Source of the DNA: Verrucomicrobiia bacterium
GTDB taxonomy: Bacteria > Acidobacteriota > Polarisedimenticolia > Gp22-AA2
Direction of reading: 5' to 3'
Assembly (NCBI GenBank): GCA_035638075.1
Contig: DASRAU010000039.1
Coordinates: 7,010-71,009, forward strand
DNA length: 64,000 bases
The notes under the pieces are model-generated. The model was not told the origin of the DNA. It did no database searches and saw only the letters and a list, made by a program, of their open reading frames with translations. Both the position numbers and the translations under genes were made by a program. Numbering within the stretch: position 1 is the stretch's first letter; the number at the start of each line of letters is the position of its first letter. This document shows positions 52,989-63,575 of this stretch, piece by piece.

Positions 52989-53738
52989 ATGCGCAAAACG
53001 ATCCGAATCCTTCCCGCTGTTCTCGTCGCCGGCCTGCTCGCCACGCCGGTGATGCTGCGGGCGGGCGACACGCACACGAGCGACGACGGGTACAAGTCCA
53101 GCCAGGCGAGCAAGTCCGCGAAGAAGGACGCCAAGACCGCGGCGAAGCTGTCCGACGCCGAAGCGGTGCTCAAGGCGGCGGCCGAGTCGAAAGACGAAGG
53201 CATTCCGCGCGACCTGCTCGAGAAGGCGAAGTGCGTCGGCGTCTTCCCGAGCTTCAAGAAGGTCGCCCTCGGAGTCGGCGGCGAAGGCGGCAAGGGCGTC
53301 TTCACGTGCCGCACCGACCACGGCATGAGCGGCCCGGCCATCTACAAGATCGGCGGCGGCAGCGTCGGCTGGCAGGCCGGCGTCAAGGAGGCCGACCTGG
53401 TGCTCCTCGTCATGGACGACGAAGCGATGAACAAGCTCCTGAACGACGATCACGTCGAGATCGGCACCGACGTCTCGGCCACGGCCGGTCCGGTCGGGCA
53501 CGATGCGAAGATGACCGACACCCAGTCGAGCGCTCAGCTTCTGGCGTGGTCACGGACGCACGGCGCCTTTGCGGGGGCGTCCCTCGATGGCCTGGGGCTG
53601 AAGCAGGACGACGACGACAACGCGGAGCTCTACAACAAGACCGTCGGGGCCAAGGAAATCCTGACCAGCGACACGGACACCCTTCCGGTGCCGCAGGTGG
53701 CGCAGTCCTTCGTGAAGACGACCGAGCAGTACATGTAG
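52989..53738 (+). CDS. Ysc84 / DUF500 domain exported protein, paralog 2
   Basis: About 60% identical to the gene at 49655 and carries the same conserved blocks. Confidence 0.8.
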   Translation: MRKTIRILPAVLVAGLLATPVMLRAGDTHTSDDGYKSSQASKSAKKDAKTAAKLSDAEAVLKAAAESKDEGIPRDLLEKAKCVGVFPSFKKVALGVGGEGGKGVFTCRTDHGMSGPAIYKIGGGSVGWQAGVKEADLVLLVMDDEAMNKLLNDDHVEIGTDVSATAGPVGHDAKMTDTQSSAQLLAWSRTHGAFAGASLDGLGLKQDDDDNAELYNKTVGAKEILTSDTDTLPVPQVAQSFVKTTEQYM

Positions 53739-53780
53739 CGCGCTGGTACCAGATCGCCTGCTGACGGCTCGGTCACTCGC

Positions 53781-53810
53781 TGCGGCCCGCCCCTCACAAG
53801 GCGGGCCGCA
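53781..53810 (+). terminator. Rho-independent terminator candidate
   Basis: TGCGGCCCGCC-cctcacaa-GGCGGGCCGCA followed by GTTTGTT, 43 nt after the stop at 53738. Confidence 0.55.
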
Positions 53811-53816
53811 GTTTGT

Positions 53817-54416
53817 TCAGCGGGCGGCGTGGCGGGCGAGGCGCAGGTCGAGGTGCTTCTTCACGTCGGGCCACTCGGTCGTCAGGATGCTGTACATGAC
53901 CGAGTCGCGCACCGATCCGTCCGGACGCAACTTGTGGTGCCGCAGCACGCCGTCCCGGCGCGCGCCGAGCGCCTCGATGGCGCGCTGCGACGGGATGTTG
54001 AAGTTATCGGTGCGGAAGCCGACGACCCGGCAGCCGAGCGACTCGAACGCGTGCCCGAGCAGCAGCCGCTTGCACGCCGCGTTCACGTGGGTCCGCTGCC
54101 ACGCGAGCGCGTACCAGGTGTAGCCGATCTCCACCCGGTCGATGGGCGCGTCGATGTCATGGAAACGCGTGCTGCCGACGATCGCGCCCGTCTTCGACTC
54201 GCGCACGGCCCACGGCAGCATGTGCCCGGCCTTTTGTCCCGCCAGCGCTTCGGCGATGTAGGCGCCGGTTTTCTCGCGCGGCGGCACGAAGGTGTAGAAG
54301 AGCTCCCACAGCCGGCCGTCCGCCGCCGCGGCCGCGAGCTCCTCCTCGTGCGACGGGGCCAGCGGCTCGAGCCGCACGCCGTGTCCTTCGAGAGTCACCG
54401 GGGCCGGATGGATCAC
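53817..54416 (-). CDS. GNAT family N-acetyltransferase (RimJ/RimL-like)
   Basis: About 200 aa with an acetyl-CoA binding region RTHVNAACKRLLLGHAFESLGCRVVGFRTD. Confidence 0.8.
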   Translation of the reverse strand: MIHPAPVTLEGHGVRLEPLAPSHEEELAAAAADGRLWELFYTFVPPREKTGAYIAEALAGQKAGHMLPWAVRESKTGAIVGSTRFHDIDAPIDRVEIGYTWYALAWQRTHVNAACKRLLLGHAFESLGCRVVGFRTDNFNIPSQRAIEALGARRDGVLRHHKLRPDGSVRDSVMYSILTTEWPDVKKHLDLRLARHAAR

Positions 54417-54465
54417 CGGCGCATTCTACCGAGTCCCATCGAGCCGGGCCCCGGCGACGCCCCGC

Positions 54466-54963
54466 TCACTTCGCCGCGGTGCGCTTCTGCGGATCGTCGG
54501 CCGGATTGATGTAGGTCAGAGCGAACGGCCCCAGGCCGTGCACCTGCACCACCGTGTCGGTTTTCGCGAACGCATAGTGATGCATCTGGGCGGGCAGCAG
54601 CGCGTAGCCGCCGGCGGCCAGCTCCTTCCCCGTGGCCTTGTCGAACTTGTCGCCCATGCCGAGGCCGAGCGTCCCCTGCAGCACCGTCACGTGCTCGTCG
54701 GTCGGATGCCAGTGAGGCGCGATCTTGTAGCCGGCCGGCATCTTCAGGCGCACGACGAAGATGCCGCTCGCACCGGGATCGCCGGAGACCACGGTGAAGG
54801 ACATCCCCTTCTCGAACACCGGCGGAGGATCGCCCCACTTGAGATCGGCGGGCATGACCATCACGTGCGCCGGCTTCGCCCCCTCCTGGGCGAGAGCCAC
54901 CGCCCCCGCCACGGCGAGGCAGGCCAGAACGACCGCCACACTCCACGAGCCAGGTCTTCGCAT
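54466..54963 (-). CDS. Secreted cupin-fold protein
   Basis: Signal peptide (start at MRRPGSWSVAV). Cupin His ligands HWHPTDEHVTVLQG...HHY. Confidence 0.7.
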   Translation of the reverse strand: MRRPGSWSVAVVLACLAVAGAVALAQEGAKPAHVMVMPADLKWGDPPPVFEKGMSFTVVSGDPGASGIFVVRLKMPAGYKIAPHWHPTDEHVTVLQGTLGLGMGDKFDKATGKELAAGGYALLPAQMHHYAFAKTDTVVQVHGLGPFALTYINPADDPQKRTAAK

Positions 54964-55055
54964 ATCCCACCTCCATGAGAGGAGCGGATTCTGCGACGGG
55001 GAACCGGTTCCTGTCCTTACCCGAGGTGCCGAAGGATTTTGCCCGGCGTCCGGCT

Positions 55056-56276
55056 TCATCGCGCCGGATCGAGCTCGTCGGCGAGCAGGCGCAGGAAGAG
55101 GCCGACGTCGGTGACGATCCCGGAGGCCTGGGCCGAGCCGCGATCGACGAGCTTGGTCACGACCGCCGGGTGGATGTCGACGCACACGGTCCGCACCCAC
55201 GACGGCGTCATGTTGCCGACCCCGATGCCGTGCAGCATCGTCCCGAGGATGAGGACGAGATCGGCGCCTCGCAGGAGCGTGGCATAGCGCTCCTGCGCCT
55301 GCGTCATGTCCATCAGCGTGTCCGGAAGCGGCCCGTCGTCGCGGATCGAGCCCGCCAGCGCCAGATCGACCCGATGGACGATGCAGTCGTGCATCAGCCC
55401 CGACTTCAGGACGCCGCGCTCGACCGCCGCGCCGAGCGACCCGGCCATCCGGATGGCGTTGATGGCGCGCATGTGGTTGCGATGCCCCTCGTCCACCGGG
55501 ATGCCGGTGGCCACGTCCACCCCGAGCGAGGTGTTGAACAGCGCCGCCTCGACGTCGTGCACCCCCAGCGCGTTGCCGGACAGCACCCCCTGGATGTAGC
55601 CGCCGCGCACCAGGCGCCCGAGGTGCCGCGTCCCGCCGGTGTGCACCACCACCGGCCCCGGCACCGCGATGGTGCGGCCGCGACGCGCCCGGATGGCGCG
55701 CATCGCCTCGGCGAGCTGCGCCACCGCCAGCTCGACGCGCCGCTCCGACGAGACCTCGTTGTTCATGAACACGAAGTCCGCCTTCTCGCGCTCGCGAAAC
55801 GGCGGGAAGACCTGCACGCCGGCGAGCCCGGCGACGACCTGGTCGCCCGCCTTCACGTCGCGCAGCTTCACGCAGCGCGCCCGGTCGCCTTCGACCACGA
55901 TGACCGCGTCCATGCGCTGGTCGGCGACGTCGAGGAAGCGCCCGCCGTGGTAGACGCGCGTGCGGTGGTTGGTGGTCGAGTAGAAATCGTCCGGCACCGT
56001 GCCGTCCGCGGCCGACGGCTTCAGCACGATCGCCCGGCTCTCGTCCACCGGATGGCAGCCGAGCGCGGTCAAGTTCTCGAGGATGCGCTCGAGGCGCTCC
56101 GGCTCGGCGGCGCTGACCGTCATCTCGACGCGCGAGAAATCCGACACCGTGCGGCCGATGTCGAAGCGCAGCAGCTCGTACGTGCCGCCGTTCTCGACCA
56201 CGATGGCGAGGAACTTCGACATCAGGCCCGAGTCGATGAGGTGGCCTTCGGCGACCAGACGGCGCGGCTGGCTCAT
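55056..56276 (-). CDS. LOR/SDH-like TIGR00300-family protein (related to archaeal-type ornithine cyclodeaminase / arginine dihydrolase ArgZ N-domain)
   Basis: Start at MSQPRRLVAEGH. MSKFLAIVVENGGTYELLRFDIG...VVVHTGGTRHLG. Family assignment is from memory of TIGR00300 features. Confidence 0.6.
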   Translation of the reverse strand: MSQPRRLVAEGHLIDSGLMSKFLAIVVENGGTYELLRFDIGRTVSDFSRVEMTVSAAEPERLERILENLTALGCHPVDESRAIVLKPSAADGTVPDDFYSTTNHRTRVYHGGRFLDVADQRMDAVIVVEGDRARCVKLRDVKAGDQVVAGLAGVQVFPPFREREKADFVFMNNEVSSERRVELAVAQLAEAMRAIRARRGRTIAVPGPVVVHTGGTRHLGRLVRGGYIQGVLSGNALGVHDVEAALFNTSLGVDVATGIPVDEGHRNHMRAINAIRMAGSLGAAVERGVLKSGLMHDCIVHRVDLALAGSIRDDGPLPDTLMDMTQAQERYATLLRGADLVLILGTMLHGIGVGNMTPSWVRTVCVDIHPAVVTKLVDRGSAQASGIVTDVGLFLRLLADELDPAR

Positions 56277-56332
56277 GGAGGGCGAATCATAACCCGCCGG
56301 CCGTGCCGCGCCGGGGCGGGCGGCGCGCGGTG

Positions 56333-56953: not shown

Positions 56954-57190
56954 TCAGCCGCGGCCGGCCAGGTAGTTCTTCACCGCGGCCAGCACGGTCT
57001 TCGGGCGGGGGTACAGGTATCGCTTGCCGTCGTAGACATCGTGGCCGTCCACGCTGACCCGGAACTCCCCGATTCCCCCCTTGATCTTCTGCACCCGCCG
57101 GTCGGGTCCTTCGAGCTGGGCCGCCACCCGGGCGGCGATGATCCTCTTGGCAAGTCAGGTGTGACAGTAGTGAACTTCGATGTGCGTCAT
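56954..57190 (-). CDS. SelW/SelT/Rdx-family thiol-redox protein with an in-frame UGA at the CxxU position (putative selenoprotein, 78 codons)
   Basis: Minus-strand translation is MTHIEVHYCHT-(TGA)-LAKRIIAARVAAQLEGPDRRVQKIKGGIGEFRVSVDGHDVYDGKRYLYPRPKTVLAAVKNYLAGRG*. The frame stays open for 66 codons after the TGA. It matches the Rdx fold pattern (beta1-CxxU-alpha1 ... GxFEVxVNGxLVxSK ... FPxP). A hairpin with a GU loop lies 18 nt after the UGA. Not present in the ORF track. Confidence 0.7.
57120..57136 (-). promoter_or_regulatory. Candidate bacterial SECIS-like hairpin downstream of the UGA codon
   Basis: mRNA GCCGCC-CGGGU-GGCGGC: a 6-bp GC stem with a loop containing GU. It starts 18 nt after the UGA at 57155-57157. 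Confidence 0.35.
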
Positions 57191-57228
57191 GCCCGGTATT
57201 CTAGAGGAGCGAAGGTTTCTCCCACCCC

Positions 57229-57846
57229 ATGTCCTATGAAAACGACCCCCGCGCCACCAATCCCTCGATGGCGCGGACGGAGCGGCGGGCGGAAAGCCCG
57301 GTTCCGGAAGACAGCGGCTCCGGGGCTCCGGCACCGATGACCCGGCAGGATTGGGACAAGGCGCTGGAGGAACTGCACCCCGTGAGCTTTCGCTGGGCCG
57401 TGACCTGCTGTCGCGGGGATCGCGAGGAGGCTCGAGACGTGCTGCAGAGCGTGTACGTGGACGTGCTGGACGGGCGGGCCCGGTTCGACGGCCTCGCCTC
57501 GGTCCAGACGTGGCTCTTCGCCGTCATCCGCCGCACCGCCGCCTCGCGGCGGCGCCGCGGCCTCGTCCGCAGCGTGCTGCTCGGGCAGTGGGCGCGGCGC
57601 CGCCCCGAACCGGTTTCGCCCGACCCGGCCGCGCGCCTGGAGAAGGCCGAGCGCGTCGCCCGCATCCGCGAGGCGATGCGGACCCTGTCGGCGCGCCAGC
57701 GCCAGGTCCTCGAGCTGGTCTTCCATCACGAACTCACCATCGAGGAGGCCGCCGGTGTCCTGGGCATCGGCGTGGGGAGCGCCCGCACGCACTACGAGCG
57801 CGGCAAGCGCGCCCTCCACGATCGCCTCACGGAGGCGGGCCTGTGA
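57229..57846 (+). CDS. ECF (sigma-70 group IV) RNA polymerase sigma factor
   Basis: Region 2 (VLQSVYVDVLDG...WLFAVIRR) and region 4 HTH (LELVFHHELTIEEAAGVLGIGVGSARTHYERGKRAL). Confidence 0.9.
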   Translation: MSYENDPRATNPSMARTERRAESPVPEDSGSGAPAPMTRQDWDKALEELHPVSFRWAVTCCRGDREEARDVLQSVYVDVLDGRARFDGLASVQTWLFAVIRRTAASRRRRGLVRSVLLGQWARRRPEPVSPDPAARLEKAERVARIREAMRTLSARQRQVLELVFHHELTIEEAAGVLGIGVGSARTHYERGKRALHDRLTEAGL

Positions 57847-58325
57847 CCCGGGAGAACGAGCGGCTGCGACGTGTCTTCCACGAGATGCACGATGCCGACC
57901 TTCCGGCGCCGGCGTATGAATCCCCCGACGCTGCGTCGGGCGCACCGGCCGCGTCAGCCTCCACTGCGCGGCCGGTGCGGAAGTCCGCCGTCGGCCGGCC
58001 GGGGCGCACCCCGGTGTTCGCGCGCGCGGCCTGGGCCTTCGCCGCGGCCGCGGCGGCCTGCGCGGTCGTCCTGGCGCTTCGCGACGGCGGCCTGCTCCAC
58101 CCGGCCCCCGGCGCGCCCACGACACCCGGCGAGGACGAGACCGTGCAGCTCGCCGCCACCCTCACCACCTGGGAGGCGCCCACCGATTTCCTCTTGACCA
58201 CACCCGGCGCGGAGTTCCTGCAATCGGCTCCGCGCCTCGGCACCGGAATGGAGACGCTGTCGGGTGACCACGGCGACCTCCTGCAGAACGACAACAACGA
58301 GAACGACACGGAGGTGTACCAATGA
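57843..58325 (+). CDS. Putative anti-sigma factor (single-pass membrane protein)
   Basis: The GTG overlaps the sigma stop (GTGA). Cytoplasmic N-terminus, one TM (AAWAFAAAAAACAVVLAL), short periplasmic tail. Confidence 0.6.
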   Translation: MTRENERLRRVFHEMHDADLPAPAYESPDAASGAPAASASTARPVRKSAVGRPGRTPVFARAAWAFAAAAAACAVVLALRDGGLLHPAPGAPTTPGEDETVQLAATLTTWEAPTDFLLTTPGAEFLQSAPRLGTGMETLSGDHGDLLQNDNNENDTEVYQ

Positions 58326-58894
58326 AGAAGCTTTTCCTCGTCGCCGCCCTGGTCGCATCCGCGACCGTCGTCATCGCCCAGGCCCGCCCATGGGGCCGTG
58401 AAGGCGGCCCTCCCGGCGGTCCCGGCGCCTTCGGCGGGCCGCGCGCCGAGATCATGGGAGAGCTGTTCTCGCCCGAGCTGGTGATGCGCCACCAGGAGGA
58501 GATCGGGCTCAGCGCCGATCAGAAGTCGAAGCTGATCAAGGCCACGCAGGCGCTGCAGACCGATCTCGTGCCGCTGCAGTTCGAGATGGGCGAAGCGAGC
58601 GGCAAGCTGCGCGACGCCCTCGCCCAGCCGACCATCGACGAGCAGAAGGCCGGTGACCTGGCCGACCACCTCATGACCCTCGAAACAAAGATCAAGAAGC
58701 GCCACCTGACCACGATGATCCAGGTCAAGAACGCCCTCACGCCGGAGCAGCAGGATCGCCTGAAGGCCCTGCGCGAGCAGGATCGCGCCGAGCGCCGCGC
58801 CCGGCGCGGCGACCGCGGCGGCCCGCCCGACGGCGGCGCCGGCGCCCCGCCGGACGGCGGCGGCGACGACCTGGCCCCGGAGCCCGGCAACTAG
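58322..58894 (+). CDS. Spy/CpxP-family (LTxxQ) periplasmic stress protein
   Basis: Signal peptide, LTPEQQ motif, helical charged repeats. The ATG overlaps the upstream stop (ATGA). Confidence 0.75.
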   Translation: MKKLFLVAALVASATVVIAQARPWGREGGPPGGPGAFGGPRAEIMGELFSPELVMRHQEEIGLSADQKSKLIKATQALQTDLVPLQFEMGEASGKLRDALAQPTIDEQKAGDLADHLMTLETKIKKRHLTTMIQVKNALTPEQQDRLKALREQDRAERRARRGDRGGPPDGGAGAPPDGGGDDLAPEPGN

Positions 58895-59088: not shown

Positions 59089-59433
59089 GTGGGCACACAA
59101 CCCGCCAAGGACAGGTCGGCCGGGCTCGTCCAGGGCACGCTCGACATGCTCATCCTCAAGACGCTGGCGCTCGAGGCGATGCACAGCTACGACATCGGCG
59201 CCCGCCTCGCCCGCGTCAGCCAGGGGGTGTTCGTCGTCAACCCGGGGTCGCTCTTCCCCGCCTTCCGGCGGCTGGAGCGCTCCGGCCTCATCCGCGGCGA
59301 GTGGCGTGACACCGAGAACAACCGCCGCGCCCGCTACTACAGCCTGACCTCGCGCGGCCGCAAGCGCCTCGGCGACGAGACGAAGCACTGGCGCCGCCTC
59401 TCCGGCGCCATCGCGCGCGTCCTGGAGGCCTGA
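59089..59433 (+). CDS. PadR-family transcriptional regulator
   Basis: [25 protein letters not shown]...[19 protein letters not shown]...[10 protein letters not shown] is a canonical PadR winged HTH. Confidence 0.9.
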
Positions 59434-62042
59434 TGGACGCCCTCGGCCGGTTCTTCCGCGGTCTGCGCGCCCTCTTCCGGCGCGATCGCGACGACCACGA
59501 GCTCGACGAAGAGCTGCGCGCTTACGCCGACGACTCGGCGGCCGCGCACGCGCGCGCCGGGATGGACCCCGCCGCCGCGCGGCGCGCCGCCGGCGTGGAG
59601 ATGGGCTCCGCCGAGGCGGTCAAGGACCACGTGCGCGACGTCGGCTGGGAAACGCATTTCGACTCGCTCCTGCGCGACCTGCGCTACGGGGCGCGGATCC
59701 TTTTCCGACACCCCGGGTTCTCCGCCGCGGCCATCCTCACCCTGGCGCTCGGCGTCGGCGCCAACACGGCGCTGTTCAGCGTGGTGAACGCGGTCCTCCT
59801 GAAGCCGCTCCCCTATCCGGACGACGACCGCCTGGTGACGCTCGCGGGAACGCATTCGGTTCCCGACGTCGCCGACCTCGCCACCCTGTCGAAGTCGTTC
59901 ACGGCGATGGGGACCCTGGCGCGCTGGGATGCCGACCTCGTCGGCGAGGGGGAGCCGGAGCGGATCTTCGCCGAGCTGGCCGGAGAGGACACCTTCAAGG
60001 CGCTCGCGGTCCCGGCGGCGATCGGGCGGACCTTCGACGCCCGTGACGACCAGGCGCGCGCGCCGGTCGTGATCCTGAGTGACGGGTTCTGGCGCAGCCA
60101 TCTCGCCGCCGACCCGGCGGTCATCGGAAGAAAACTGACGCTCAGCGGCAAGGTGTACGACGTGATCGGCGTGATGCCTCCCGGTTTCCGGACCCCGTTC
60201 AACGGGTCGGCCGCGCAGCTCTGGGTGCCTTTCCGGTTCGGCTACCCCGAGGCGGCCGAGGCGCGCGGCGCCCACTTCACCAACCCGGTGGCCCGGCTCG
60301 CCCCTCATGTCACGCTGGCCGCGGCCCGGGCCGAGCTCGAGCTTTTGGGCCGGCGCCTGGCCGAGGCCCACCCGGACGAGGCCCGCACCTTCGTGCCCGA
60401 GCCGTTGCGCGACCGCGTCAATGGAGAGATCCGCCGGCCGCTCCTGCTGCTGTTCGCGGCGGTGTCGCTCGTTTTGCTCGTCGCCTGCGCCAACTACGCG
60501 TCGCTCCTTCTGGCCCGCGGCGCCGGGCGCGGGGCCGAGATGCGCCTGCGACGGGCGCTGGGCGCCGGGCGCGGCCGGCTGGTGCGCCAGCTCGTCACCG
60601 AGAGCGCGCTCCTGTCGCTTCTCGGCGGCCTGGCCGGCGCGCTCCTCGCGAGCCTCGGCCTGCGTGCTCTGGCGGCGCTTCGACCCGAGGGACTGCCGGC
60701 GGTCAATCCGATCGGGCTCGACCTCGACGCTCTCGCCTTCGCGCTGCTCGCGTCGTTCGTCACCGGACTCGCGTTCGGTGCGGCCCCGGCGTGGCAGGCG
60801 GCGCGCGGCGGCGAGCGGCCGCCGGCCTCGTCCACGACGAGCGCCGCGACCTCACCCCTGCGGCGCGGCCTCGTGGTCGCGCAGCTGGCGCTGGCGCTGG
60901 TCCTCCTGACGGGAGCGGGCCTGCTGATGCGCTCGTTCGCGATCCTGCTCGCCCAGCCGAGCGGCTTCCAGCCGGCCGGGGTGCTGACGATGCGGCTGCA
61001 GCTGCCGGCGGCGCGCTACGACTCGATCCCGTCGCAGCAGGCGTTCCTGTCGCGGCTCGAGGAAGGACTACGCGACCTGCCGGGCGCGCGCGCCGCCGGG
61101 CTCGTCTCCGAGCTGCCGCTTTCCGGCTGGCGGATGATGCACAACATGATCGTCGAGGGGCAGCCCCAGGTTCCCGAAGGCCAGGAGCCGGAGATCTACA
61201 CGCACGAGGTGAGCCCCGGCTACTTCGCCGCCGCGGGAACGCCGATCGTGCGCGGCCGCGGCATCGCCGTCTCCGATGCGCCCGGCGCGGCGCTCGTGGG
61301 CGTGGTCAACGAGGCGTTCGTGCGCCGCTTCGCGCCCGATCGCGACCCTTTGGGGATGCGGGCGCGCTGGGCCCGCGCCGATCCGAACGCCTGGATGACC
61401 ATCGTGGGCGTCGTCGGCGATGCGCGCTTCGAGAGCCTGGGCGAGGAGCAATCCCCGACCATCTACACGCCCTTTCTCCAGAAGCAGCAGCCGTGGAAGC
61501 GCTGGACCGCCGTCGTCATCCGCACCGCGGGAGGCGATCCGATGGCCTTCGCGGAGCGGGTCCGGCAGGACGTGCGGCGCCTCGACCCGGCGCTGCCGAT
61601 CACCGAGGTCCGGCCGATGTCCGCGGTGCTTCTCTCGTCGGTCAGCGACCGGCGCTTCAATCTCATCCTGCTGTCGGCCTTCGCCGGCCTGGCGTTCGGC
61701 CTGGCCGCGGTCGGCGTCTACGGCGTGCTGGCGCACCTCGTGGCGCAGCGGTCGCGCGAGGTCGGGGTGCGCATGGCGCTCGGCGCCCGGCGTCTCGACG
61801 TCCTGTGGCTCATGCTGCGCCAGGGCCTGCCGCTCATCGGCCTCGGCATCGCCGGCGGGACGCTCGCCGCCCTGGCCTCGACGCACCTGATGCGGAGCCT
61901 GCTCTACGGCATCGGACCCGGCGATCCCCTGACCTTCGTCGCCGCGGCCGCCTGCCTGGCCCTCGTCGGCGTGCTCGCGAGCCTGATCCCGGCGCAGCGG
62001 GCGGCGCGCGTCGATCCCTGCATCGCCCTGCGCGCCGAATAG
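59433..62042 (+). CDS. ADOP-family duplicated FtsX/MacB-like ABC transporter permease
   Basis: 869 aa with a MacB-like periplasmic domain and two FtsX 4-TM modules. The N-terminal [31 protein letters not shown] is typical of Acidobacterial ADOP permeases found downstream of padR. Confidence 0.9.
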
Positions 62043-62358: not shown

Positions 62359-62567
62359 GGCTCTGTCTCCTTGATGAGGACACCAGAGGGTGGTGACCGA
62401 CGCCCAATCTACGGCATCGACGTGGCTGGAGACTTGCCCCGGAGACCGTCGCTCTTTGCCGGGCGTCCGGAGCATGCGGCCGAGCGACCCGTAGTACCCT
62501 GCGATCACCGGATCACGAACCCGATGCGGCCGGCCGAAGCGGCGCCGCATTTCGCACAGGAGACCTC

Positions 62568-63059
62568 ATGCCCACGAAAACCCGCGCGAAGATCTTCCCG
62601 TTCCTCTGGTACGCGAAGGAAGCCGAGGAGGCGGCGAAGTTCTACGCCTCCGTCTTCCCGGATTCCCATGTCGACAGGGTCACAACGATGATGAGCGAAT
62701 CGCCGAGCGGTCCGCCCGGCTCGGTGAAGGTCGTCGACTTCACGCTCCTCGGCCAGCGCTTCCAGGCGATGACGGCGGGCAAGCACGACGACTTCAACGA
62801 CTCCATCTCGATCACGGTGCTCTGCGAGGACCAGGCGGAAATCGATCGCTACTGGCACGCGCTCCTGAAGGACGGCGGCAAGGAGCAGGCGTGCGGCTGG
62901 CTGACCGACCGCTACGGCCTGCGCTGGCAGATCGTTCCGGCCGTCATGGAAGAGATGATGGCCGACCCCGACCCGAAGCGCTCCAGGAAGGCCACCGACG
63001 CGATGATGAAGATGGTCAAGTTCGACATCGCCGCGCTGGAGAAGGCCTACCGGTCGTAG
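62568..63059 (+). CDS. PhnB-like VOC-superfamily protein (3-demethylubiquinone-9 3-methyltransferase-type domain)
   Basis: IFPFLWYAKEAEEAAKFYASVF...FTLLGQRFQAM...CGWLTDRYGLRWQIVP matches pfam06983. Confidence 0.8.
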   Translation: MPTKTRAKIFPFLWYAKEAEEAAKFYASVFPDSHVDRVTTMMSESPSGPPGSVKVVDFTLLGQRFQAMTAGKHDDFNDSISITVLCEDQAEIDRYWHALLKDGGKEQACGWLTDRYGLRWQIVPAVMEEMMADPDPKRSRKATDAMMKMVKFDIAALEKAYRS

Positions 63060-63067
63060 GCCGCCGC

Positions 63068-63475
63068 TCAGTCGCGGTTGATCGCCGCCAGGACGACGCC
63101 GGTGACCAGCGCCATGACGGTCTCGAGGGCGATCTGCTTGACGACGATCGCCCCGGGCCAGGGCTGCACGACGTAATAGATGAGGTACATCGGGATGGCG
63201 AAGGCGCACGCGAGCGCCACGCCGAAGCGCAGCCCCTGTCCGAGCCATGGCCGGCCGGACTCGCGTCCCTTGCGATAGATCCACGTGAAGCCGAAGGCCA
63301 TCACGAGATTCGCGATGAACATCCAGTGGAAGTGCGCCTGCGCGTCGGCCTCGGTGCGCATCAGGTTCGGCTGCGCCGCGTAGTCGGCGTGCAGAATCGT
63401 CCCGTGGATCAGGAACCCGCCCAGCATCACGACCACGAACGTCACGACCCCCGAGATCCAGAACCGTGGCCCCAT
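63068..63475 (-). CDS. Hypothetical 4-TM membrane protein
   Basis: 135 aa, four hydrophobic helices. No family assigned with confidence. Confidence 0.55.
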   Translation of the reverse strand: MGPRFWISGVVTFVVVMLGGFLIHGTILHADYAAQPNLMRTEADAQAHFHWMFIANLVMAFGFTWIYRKGRESGRPWLGQGLRFGVALACAFAIPMYLIYYVVQPWPGAIVVKQIALETVMALVTGVVLAAINRD

Positions 63476-63575
63476 TCACCCCCCCTGGCGCGACGCGGCG
63501 CGGCGGAGATGGTAGCATCCGCCCCGCGAAGTCACCTGTCACCCGTTCACGCAGCGCGATCACAGGAGGAACCCG

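Follow-up and report, generated by a model that had tools for sequence, protein, structure and literature searches.

A 64-kb stretch of acidobacterial DNA (hereafter the window; 70.6% GC) carries on its minus strand, at 56954..57190, what we read as an intact gene for a 78-residue redox protein of the thioredoxin-fold Rdx family (SelW/SelT/SelH). Its predicted active site is Cys9-x-x-Sec12, in which selenocysteine (Sec) would be encoded by an in-frame TGA, and we put the probability of this reading at about 0.88. The gene call draws on the sequence and its translation, on hidden Markov model (HMM) matches that span the TGA and on orthologous loci. All coordinates are window positions on the minus strand unless marked otherwise. 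Translation from the ATG at 57188..57190, which lies eight codons 5' of the Cys codon and is conserved among loci, gives MTHIEVHYCHT, the TGA as codon 12 and then 66 sense codons, with a C-terminal end of ...YLYPRPKTVLAAVKNYLAGRG, before the true terminator, a TGA at 56956-56954. The CxxU motif occupies 57155..57166 as TGT-CAC-ACC-TGA (Cys9-His-Thr-Sec12), the Cys codon TGT lying at 57166-57164 and the TGA at 57157-57155. A sequence-only reading of this DNA had proposed the same frame, from ATG 57190-57188 to stop 56956-56954, and we reproduced it exactly. Its remark that no open reading frame (ORF) is reported on the minus strand here was mistaken, since the mechanical ORF list holds both halves of the gene, one of 59 aa, closed by the internal TGA, and one of 57 aa, opening with GTG (56954..57127), which is the truncated form that gene callers report instead of the full gene. 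TGA is the ordinary stop in 13 of the 22 window genes with Pfam support and the commonest stop among them, so the standard code applies and the UGA of the selenoprotein gene is a local exception.

The comparison of sequences puts the feature beyond chance, through conservation of the TGA, retention of an in-frame N-terminal peptide and near-invariant synonymous sites in a downstream hairpin. Searching the window translation (U changed to C) against 5.8 billion proteins returned 19 relatives, all of 46-68 aa and every one without its N-terminus, as expected if gene callers all halt at the same place. We fetched the DNA of two of these relatives and, from GTDB genomes and JGI metagenomes, of another 49 loci, 51 in all; the search patterns for loci were placed in the C-terminal half, so that the selection did not depend on codon 12. 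With the exception of L040, all 51 fetched loci, and the window as well, have the architecture M-x-x-[IV]-x-[IV]-H-Y-C-x-x-*-x-x-K-x-x-I-A-A-R-V-A-A (an asterisk marks an in-frame stop codon), which makes 50 fetched loci. To the question of whether orthologues carry TGA or TGC at the starred (U) codon, which the sequence-only reading had raised, the loci give a uniform answer: it is TGA in 51/51 motif-bearing loci and never TAA, TAG, TGC or TGT. Four further, more divergent loci have TGA too, which brings the total to 55/55 with the window included. The Cys codon of CxxU in the same 51 loci is TGC in 25, TGT in 25 and TGA in one, and the true terminator varies between TGA, TAG and TAA. Position 12 and C9 are invariant in the clade, and orthologues keep the in-frame UGA where homologues carry a Cys instead (CCPVC in the natural Cys homologue P0082, CxxC in Rdx structures). 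In 40 of 43 sequences the UGA is followed by a C, and in E. coli termination at UGA-C is weak.

The 11 codons upstream of the TGA vary mainly at third positions, so that conservation there shows a three-base periodicity. Of 44 unique loci, 38 have an ATG eight codons ahead of the Cys, and 35 have a GGAG, GAGG or AGGA core 4-18 nt upstream. A conserved ATG and Shine-Dalgarno (SD) sequence before the UGA would direct ribosomes to a start upstream of it. The window lacks an SD sequence before this ATG, as do its close relatives L003, L016 and L018. A TAGAAT box at window 57198-57203 (-) ends 7 nt before ATG 57190 and, together with the missing SD sequence, hints that the mRNA may be leaderless in the window's lineage. 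A sigma-70 consensus scan gave no full promoter for the window gene. About 55 nt upstream of the ATG, at 57248-57277 (-), there is also a terminator-like hairpin of 13 pairs followed by GGTCGTTTTC, which lies antisense inside the 5' end of a gene for an extracytoplasmic function (ECF) sigma factor; shuffled sequences predict 0.3 such sites, and there is one.

The sequence, motif and fold matches of the protein place its family as a divergent branch of the Rdx/SelW fold. Aligned to the HMMs that the sequence-only reading had named as a check, the U-to-C protein matched Pfam Rdx (PF10262) over profile positions 2-73 of 74 with an E value of 2.3e-4 and 21.7 bits, just under the gathering cut-off of 22.6, and NCBIfam NF041051 (SelTWH_Campy) over positions 1-68 of 70 with an E value of 1.6e-6 and 28.2 bits (cut-off 88). 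For NCBIfam TIGR02174 (CXXU_selWTH) the score was 16.7 bits (cut-off 34.2) over positions 1-74 of 74. Both NCBIfam matches are colinear and full-length yet score far below the curated cut-offs, and for this reason the annotation pipeline PGAP does not call the gene. No other Pfam family was matched by the 27 clade members. A clade profile run against all PDB sequences returned as its top three the Rdx structures 2oka, 3dex and 2ljk (MIEN1), aligned end to end with their CxxC on the CxxU, at marginal E values of 0.03-0.2. The TGA therefore falls at the Sec/Cys position of the family, as had been claimed.

We modelled the fold with AlphaFold on the natural Cys homologue P0082 rather than on the window protein, using an alignment of 118 database sequences. 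The model (predicted local distance difference test, pLDDT, 84.4; predicted template modelling score, pTM, 0.70) has the topology b1-a1-b2-b3-b4-a2, its elements being E2-8, H13-27, E32-38, E44-48, E51-55 and H64-83, with the CxxC between b1 and a1. This is the SelW/Rdx fold that had been anticipated from the sequence. In a Foldseek search of the PDB the top matches of the model were 2fa8, 3dex, 2obk, 2p0g, 2ojl and 2oka, with template modelling (TM) scores of 0.55-0.70. These SelW-related structures align over 74-80 columns and full length at 15-18% identity and rank ahead of thioredoxins. They include proteins of Agrobacterium (2fa8), Vibrio (2p0g) and Streptomyces (3dex, SAV_2001), and unlike the window protein all six carry CxxC; human MIEN1 (2ljk), found by profile, likewise carries CxxC and not CxxU. 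To our knowledge, no established biochemical function can be carried over from any of these solved Rdx Cys proteins (2fa8, 2p0g, 3dex, 2obk, 2ojl, 2oka, 2ljk). The window protein has its CxxU after the N-terminal strand, where the Rdx family has CxxC or CxxU, and the homologue model has the thioredoxin-like b1-a1-b2-b3-b4-a2 arrangement nearest to SelW-related structures. Judged by this model, the clade appears to share the fold and motif of Rdx/SelW proteins while staying below the curated HMM cut-offs. Its signature is HYCPVU-x2-K-x2-IAARVAA ... GELRVTVDG ... YPRP.

Downstream of the UGA, at 57120..57136, lies a putative core of a bacterial selenocysteine insertion sequence (SECIS), within the codons for Ala19-Ala20-Arg21-Val22-Ala23-Ala24. 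A 5' arm GCCGCC (57136-57131), a loop CGGGU (57130-57126) and a 3' arm GGCGGC (57125-57120) form a 6-bp stem-loop that starts 18 nt after the UGA, where the sequence-only reading had located it. We compared it with the bacterial SECIS consensus criteria as quoted in PMC13188914. The apical loop is 5 nt (3-9 nt required) and the upper stem 6 bp (4-16 bp required), a G required within the first two loop positions is found at position 2 and is followed by another G, the UGA-to-loop spacing is 24 nt (16-37 nt required) and the minimum free energy is -10.9 kcal/mol (at most -7.5 kcal/mol required). Among orthologues the hairpin energy ranges from -7.7 to -12.0 kcal/mol. RNAalifold, given 33 orthologues, recovered exactly this 6-bp stem; the 60 nt that follow the UGA gave no further conserved structure. 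Numbered from the U of UGA (position 1), the conserved element reads G22-C-Y-G-C-C27 / M-G-K-G-U / G33-G-C-R-G-C38. With the SECIS of the E. coli fdhF type and the bSECISearch model it shares a stem-loop within the coding sequence 3' of the UGA, a small apical loop, a G followed by G or U and the 16-37 nt spacing. In contrast to the fdhF-type element only a short, perfect 6-bp GC stem is kept, with no lower stem or bulged U evident, and binding of SelB is putative. No Rfam family matched the hairpin or the window.

The stronger indication of an RNA element comes from synonymous sites. In codons with a conserved amino acid and four-fold degeneracy, we compared the entropy at third positions. 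For the hairpin codons A19, A20, R21, V22 and A23, whose four-fold sites show either no variation or only C and U, it is 0.69, 0, 0.53, 0 and 0 bit, and for A24, which follows directly, and 13 others of the same class it is 1.24-1.97 bit, with one at 0.53; the difference (Mann-Whitney p = 0.001) is indicative only, the sequences being phylogenetically related. The stem pairs that join two wobble positions are 24-36 and 27-33. Pair 27-33 never varies, and pair 24-36 is C-G in 31 sequences, U-G in five and U-A in one (L052, a compensatory double change). The peptide IAARVAA is the most conserved of the family, as expected if an RNA element constrains the protein, and the sole Cys form, P0082, has VASRVAA in its place, which alters one stem codon. 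The sequence comparison thus supports purifying selection at the nucleotide level on a hairpin-capable sequence, the pairing itself lacking statistical proof.

Three of the loci show irregularities of their own. In L050 (~1048-1194) a TGA stands at the Cys position too (MRSVVIHH*MV*PGK), perhaps as a UxxU variant or else through an error of sequencing or assembly; its first UGA would have a distance of 33 nt to the loop, which the SECIS range of 16-37 nt still covers. L047 (3001-3225) has an extra in-frame TAG after about codon 32 and is a pseudogene or an error. In L040 (583-810; protein P0094) the part with CxxU and SECIS is replaced by an Fpg-like N-terminus (PF01149), which makes it a chimeric contig or a gene remnant.

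Several results weigh against a selenoprotein. The window protein stops just short of the Pfam Rdx gathering threshold and reaches neither NCBIfam cut-off, and an Rdx E value of 0.01 or better is obtained by only 6 of the 27 clade members (best 4.1e-5). The claim that the hairpin is a bacterial SECIS stands as far as the published criteria go, but the structure is not statistically special by itself: 189 of the 1197 TGA triplets in the window (16%) precede a hairpin that passes the same loose bSECIS model, and the local fold of the 71-nt region is unremarkable (z = +1.16). Taken alone, the fit to the SECIS model proves little. Covariation in the hairpin is not significant, as the stem hardly varies: a single compensatory change is seen, and shuffling does equally well in 99 of 500 cases. 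Finally, selA, selB, selC and selD were seen neither in the 64-kb window nor in 414 kb of related loci: ARAGORN found no tRNA in the window or in the 51 loci, Pfam no SelA, SelB or SelD domain in 30 window ORFs, and a search for signature motifs of the Sec machinery nothing in the 414 kb examined. This last point is weak evidence or uninformative, because Sec machinery genes are usually unlinked to selenoprotein genes.

Indirect support for Sec use in related genomes comes from L056 and L057. There the family gene has, about 100 bp upstream, a neighbour of the canonical SelW-like type that carries an in-frame TGA of its own (MQVSITYCVQ*NYLPQATSLAASLK...; L056 5113-5283, L057 973-1143), so that two different CxxU Rdx genes stand side by side. 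The truncated 56-aa product of this neighbour is annotated as Pfam Rdx. Acidobacteria have been listed among the Sec-using phyla (PMC1794560, Table 2). A candidate SelD next to the gene was rejected. This AIRS/AIRS_C protein of L053/L054 (8370-9431), about 570 bp upstream, is PurM, as it scores 413 bits with TIGR00878 (PurM) and 34.8 with the selD model, for which the cut-off is 125.

We considered three other explanations, which even taken together we regard as improbable. Each of them runs counter to the fact that TGA alone is retained, to the conservation of the start and of the N-terminal strand, and to the synonymous constraint at specific positions. One is that the UGA is read through without Sec, an opal-suppressor tRNA (an allo-tRNA, or a selC*-type tRNA(Cys) acting via a SelB paralogue) inserting Cys, Ser or another residue to give a CxxC or CxxX Rdx protein. 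Precedents exist in the 8/4 and 9/3 tRNAs of Acidobacteria, which are possible nonsense suppressors, and in a tRNA(Cys) that mimics tRNA(Sec) in delta-proteobacteria (PMC5389517), and neither tRNA(Sec) nor Sec machinery was seen in the window or loci examined. The same survey, however, did not find selC* in Acidobacteria (PMC5389517), and a general suppressor would have to operate where TGA is the commonest ordinary stop. It would also leave unexplained why a hairpin at SECIS spacing is held under constraint at the nucleotide level and why TGA persists in 55/55 loci although one point mutation would give Cys, and for SelW-like proteins CxxU is well established (PMC1088965, PMC13188914). We consider such suppression very unlikely, if the least so of the three. 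Slightly less probable again is that the sequence of the hairpin is conserved for reasons other than a SECIS, be it protein constraint on IAARVAA combined with codon bias or another RNA or DNA signal, with Sec inserted via another element. The non-significant covariation, the preference of these genomes for GC-rich codons, the empty Rfam search and the finding that a 3' arm slid by 3 nt still pairs at 97%, the arm sequence being repetitive, all allow for this. Yet the Ala24 codon and the 13 other conserved four-fold codons of the same genes use all four bases, and the changes seen in the stem keep its pairing (C to U opposite G in five sequences, C-G to U-A in one). Geometry, loop G and energy moreover match the published model, and over the 60 nt downstream of the UGA RNAalifold gives no competing conserved structure.

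The least probable of the three, in our judgement, is that the TGA is a true stop, the locus being either a pseudogene or a gene of which only the downstream ORF of 57-66 residues is expressed (from GTG 57127 or similar), with the 11 codons before the TGA as leader or non-coding sequence. It is true that every gene caller reports the downstream ORF only, and that the window's lineage has no SD sequence before the ATG. But the 11 upstream codons are kept in frame, as a beta-strand and Cys, across homologues that are 40-90% identical, with ATG and SD placed accordingly, and the start positions of the truncated calls are inconsistent. The downstream fragment would be missing two things that the fold requires, strand b1 and the redox motif, and alone it matches Rdx only at an E value of 0.14, compared to 2.3e-4 for the full sequence. 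A pseudogene, for its part, would not keep the exact TGA in every locus while the remainder is under purifying selection.

For the selenoprotein reading, we propose the following course of expression. Translation would start at ATG 57190, and the UGA at 57157-57155 would be recoded by SelB.GTP.Sec-tRNA(Sec), SelB being recruited by the in-CDS (coding sequence) hairpin at 57136-57120 with its loop 24 nt after the UGA. Ribosomes would then run on to the true stop at 56956-56954. Since the SECIS would lie within helix alpha1, both its nucleotides and the peptide IAARVAA would be fixed. By analogy with what has been proposed for other SelW-like proteins, the product is most likely a small selenenylsulfide or selenol-thiol oxidoreductase, its CxxU probably alternating between a selenenylsulfide and a selenol/thiol state. 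Decoding by SelB and tRNA(Sec), selenium incorporation, redox function and substrate are all putative here.

The locus almost certainly holds a SelW-like CxxU selenoprotein gene, of a family already known, and does not reveal a system of a new kind. In bacteria, CxxU selenoproteins of the SelW-like type have been on record since 2005, and in Sargasso Sea data no other selenoprotein family was as abundant (PMC1088965). A prokaryotic selenoprotein inventory of 2026 lists SelW-like proteins under PF10262 (PMC13188914), and Cys forms of the family are rare (PMC1794560). The gene described here shares with bacterial SelW-like members a size of about 75-85 aa, the thioredoxin-like b1-CxxU-a1-b2-b3-b4-a2 fold, Sec as the second redox residue of the motif, a SECIS within the coding sequence just after the UGA and the rarity of Cys forms. 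It differs from them in belonging to a divergent clade that has its own signature and one nearly invariant SECIS sequence clade-wide.

How large this clade is, and how it has been recorded, became evident from a profile built from 27 reconstructed full-length members, which matched 619 database proteins at E <= 0.001. Among 123 homologues that we retrieved, 118 are truncations starting downstream of the UGA (46-101 aa, median 64), and their start positions disagree. In another four (P0020, P0021, P0027 and P0042) the TGA is read as W. The codon of W-reading entries, checked in loci L052 (1284-1523) and L055 (705-938), is TGA, and JGI evidently translated those short contigs with a code in which TGA is Trp. 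The one genuine Cys form among the 123 is P0082 (MADLTIRCCPVCPEK...), 37% identical to the window protein over 95% of the latter; with the four Trp-reading proteins it makes up the only full-length database entries. Homologue records at NCBI are truncated "hypothetical proteins" from metagenome-assembled genomes (MAGs) of Polarisedimenticolia and Thermoanaerobaculia, and members occur in soil, rhizosphere and sediment metagenomes and in MAGs labelled mostly Acidobacteriota.

At slightly better than even odds, we hold that these proteins form a distinct, uncatalogued Rdx branch, almost always with Sec, that is widespread in soil Acidobacteriota and neighbouring phyla and carries one near-invariant SECIS in helix alpha1 dictating IAARVAA. 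The branch would be recorded as truncated hypothetical proteins because it falls below the Pfam and NCBIfam cut-offs. We found no paper describing the clade in a literature search of incomplete coverage, and a search of BSepDB and the 2026 review for Acidobacteria or the clade brought up nothing beyond the generic SELENOW-like family. The novelty is modest: a divergent, large, soil-associated and near-always-Sec clade below HMM cut-offs, systematically truncated, with one near-invariant SECIS. That the locus is "unannotatable", as the sequence-only reading put it, overstates the case, since a gene of a known selenoprotein family can in principle be annotated; it is correct that current HMM cut-offs miss it.

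Divergent from the selenoprotein gene, and separated from its ATG by 38 bp, is the gene for the ECF sigma factor (57229-57846; ATG at 57229). It is followed in the same direction by an ORF without Pfam match (57846-58325), an LTXXQ/Metal_resist protein of the Spy/CpxP-like type (58322-58894), a PadR protein (59089-59433) and a MacB/FtsX permease (59433-62042). On the same strand as the selenoprotein gene and downstream of it are a lipoprotein-like ORF without Pfam match (56890-56333) and, further on, genes for an ArgZ-like/LOR-SDH enzyme, a cupin and a GNAT acetyltransferase. The sequence-only reading had seen functional sense in a redox protein beside the ECF sigma / anti-sigma / Spy-CpxP envelope-stress module. 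The 38-bp divergent gap was confirmed, but we rejected functional coupling as a conserved association, the neighbours being confined to the closest relatives: adjacency to the sigma factor is limited to L003, a MAG labelled Candidatus Polarisedimenticolia that is about 91% identical to the window at the DNA level over 6 kb, and to L016-L018 (84-91% over aligned segments). When flanking ORFs of 57 loci were clustered all against all, with the gene's own antisense shadow ORF set aside, no neighbour family occurred in more than six loci, and the family found in six was from close relatives of the window throughout. From its surroundings, the gene behaves as a stand-alone unit.

Other features of the window were also recorded. 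At 82-91% DNA identity, a forest-soil contig (L002) matches the window (53009-56279 and 62558-63484) in its ArgZ-like, GNAT and Ysc84 genes and in two more segments, with the order rearranged relative to the selenoprotein gene. A scan of the window for further genes with in-frame TGA, based on the frame signature of GC content at third codon positions (GC3), yielded only adjacent genes in the same frame. At about 25964 on the plus strand, a lone TGA (GVKYGR*RHRR) lies between two same-frame ORFs of 569 and 529 codons whose coding signature is strong. Most probably the two are simply adjacent genes, the downstream ORF being without Pfam match.

For annotation, the finding turns a 57-residue hypothetical protein call into a 78-residue CxxU selenoprotein, and the same error recurs in hundreds of metagenome and MAG entries. 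A dedicated HMM, used with the motif TGA-N18-GCYGCCMGKGUGGCRGC, would let pipelines detect the family. The gene also offers a clear example of how a putative bacterial SECIS may constrain a protein, with five consecutive codons fixed at the nucleotide level. It marks a Polarisedimenticolia-like acidobacterium, and with it many soil bacteria, as probable users of selenocysteine, and so bears on the ecology of selenium in soil, prokaryotic selenoproteomes having been studied mostly in marine and groundwater data. If the clade is indeed an uncatalogued Sec-containing branch, soil selenoproteomes would have been undercounted.

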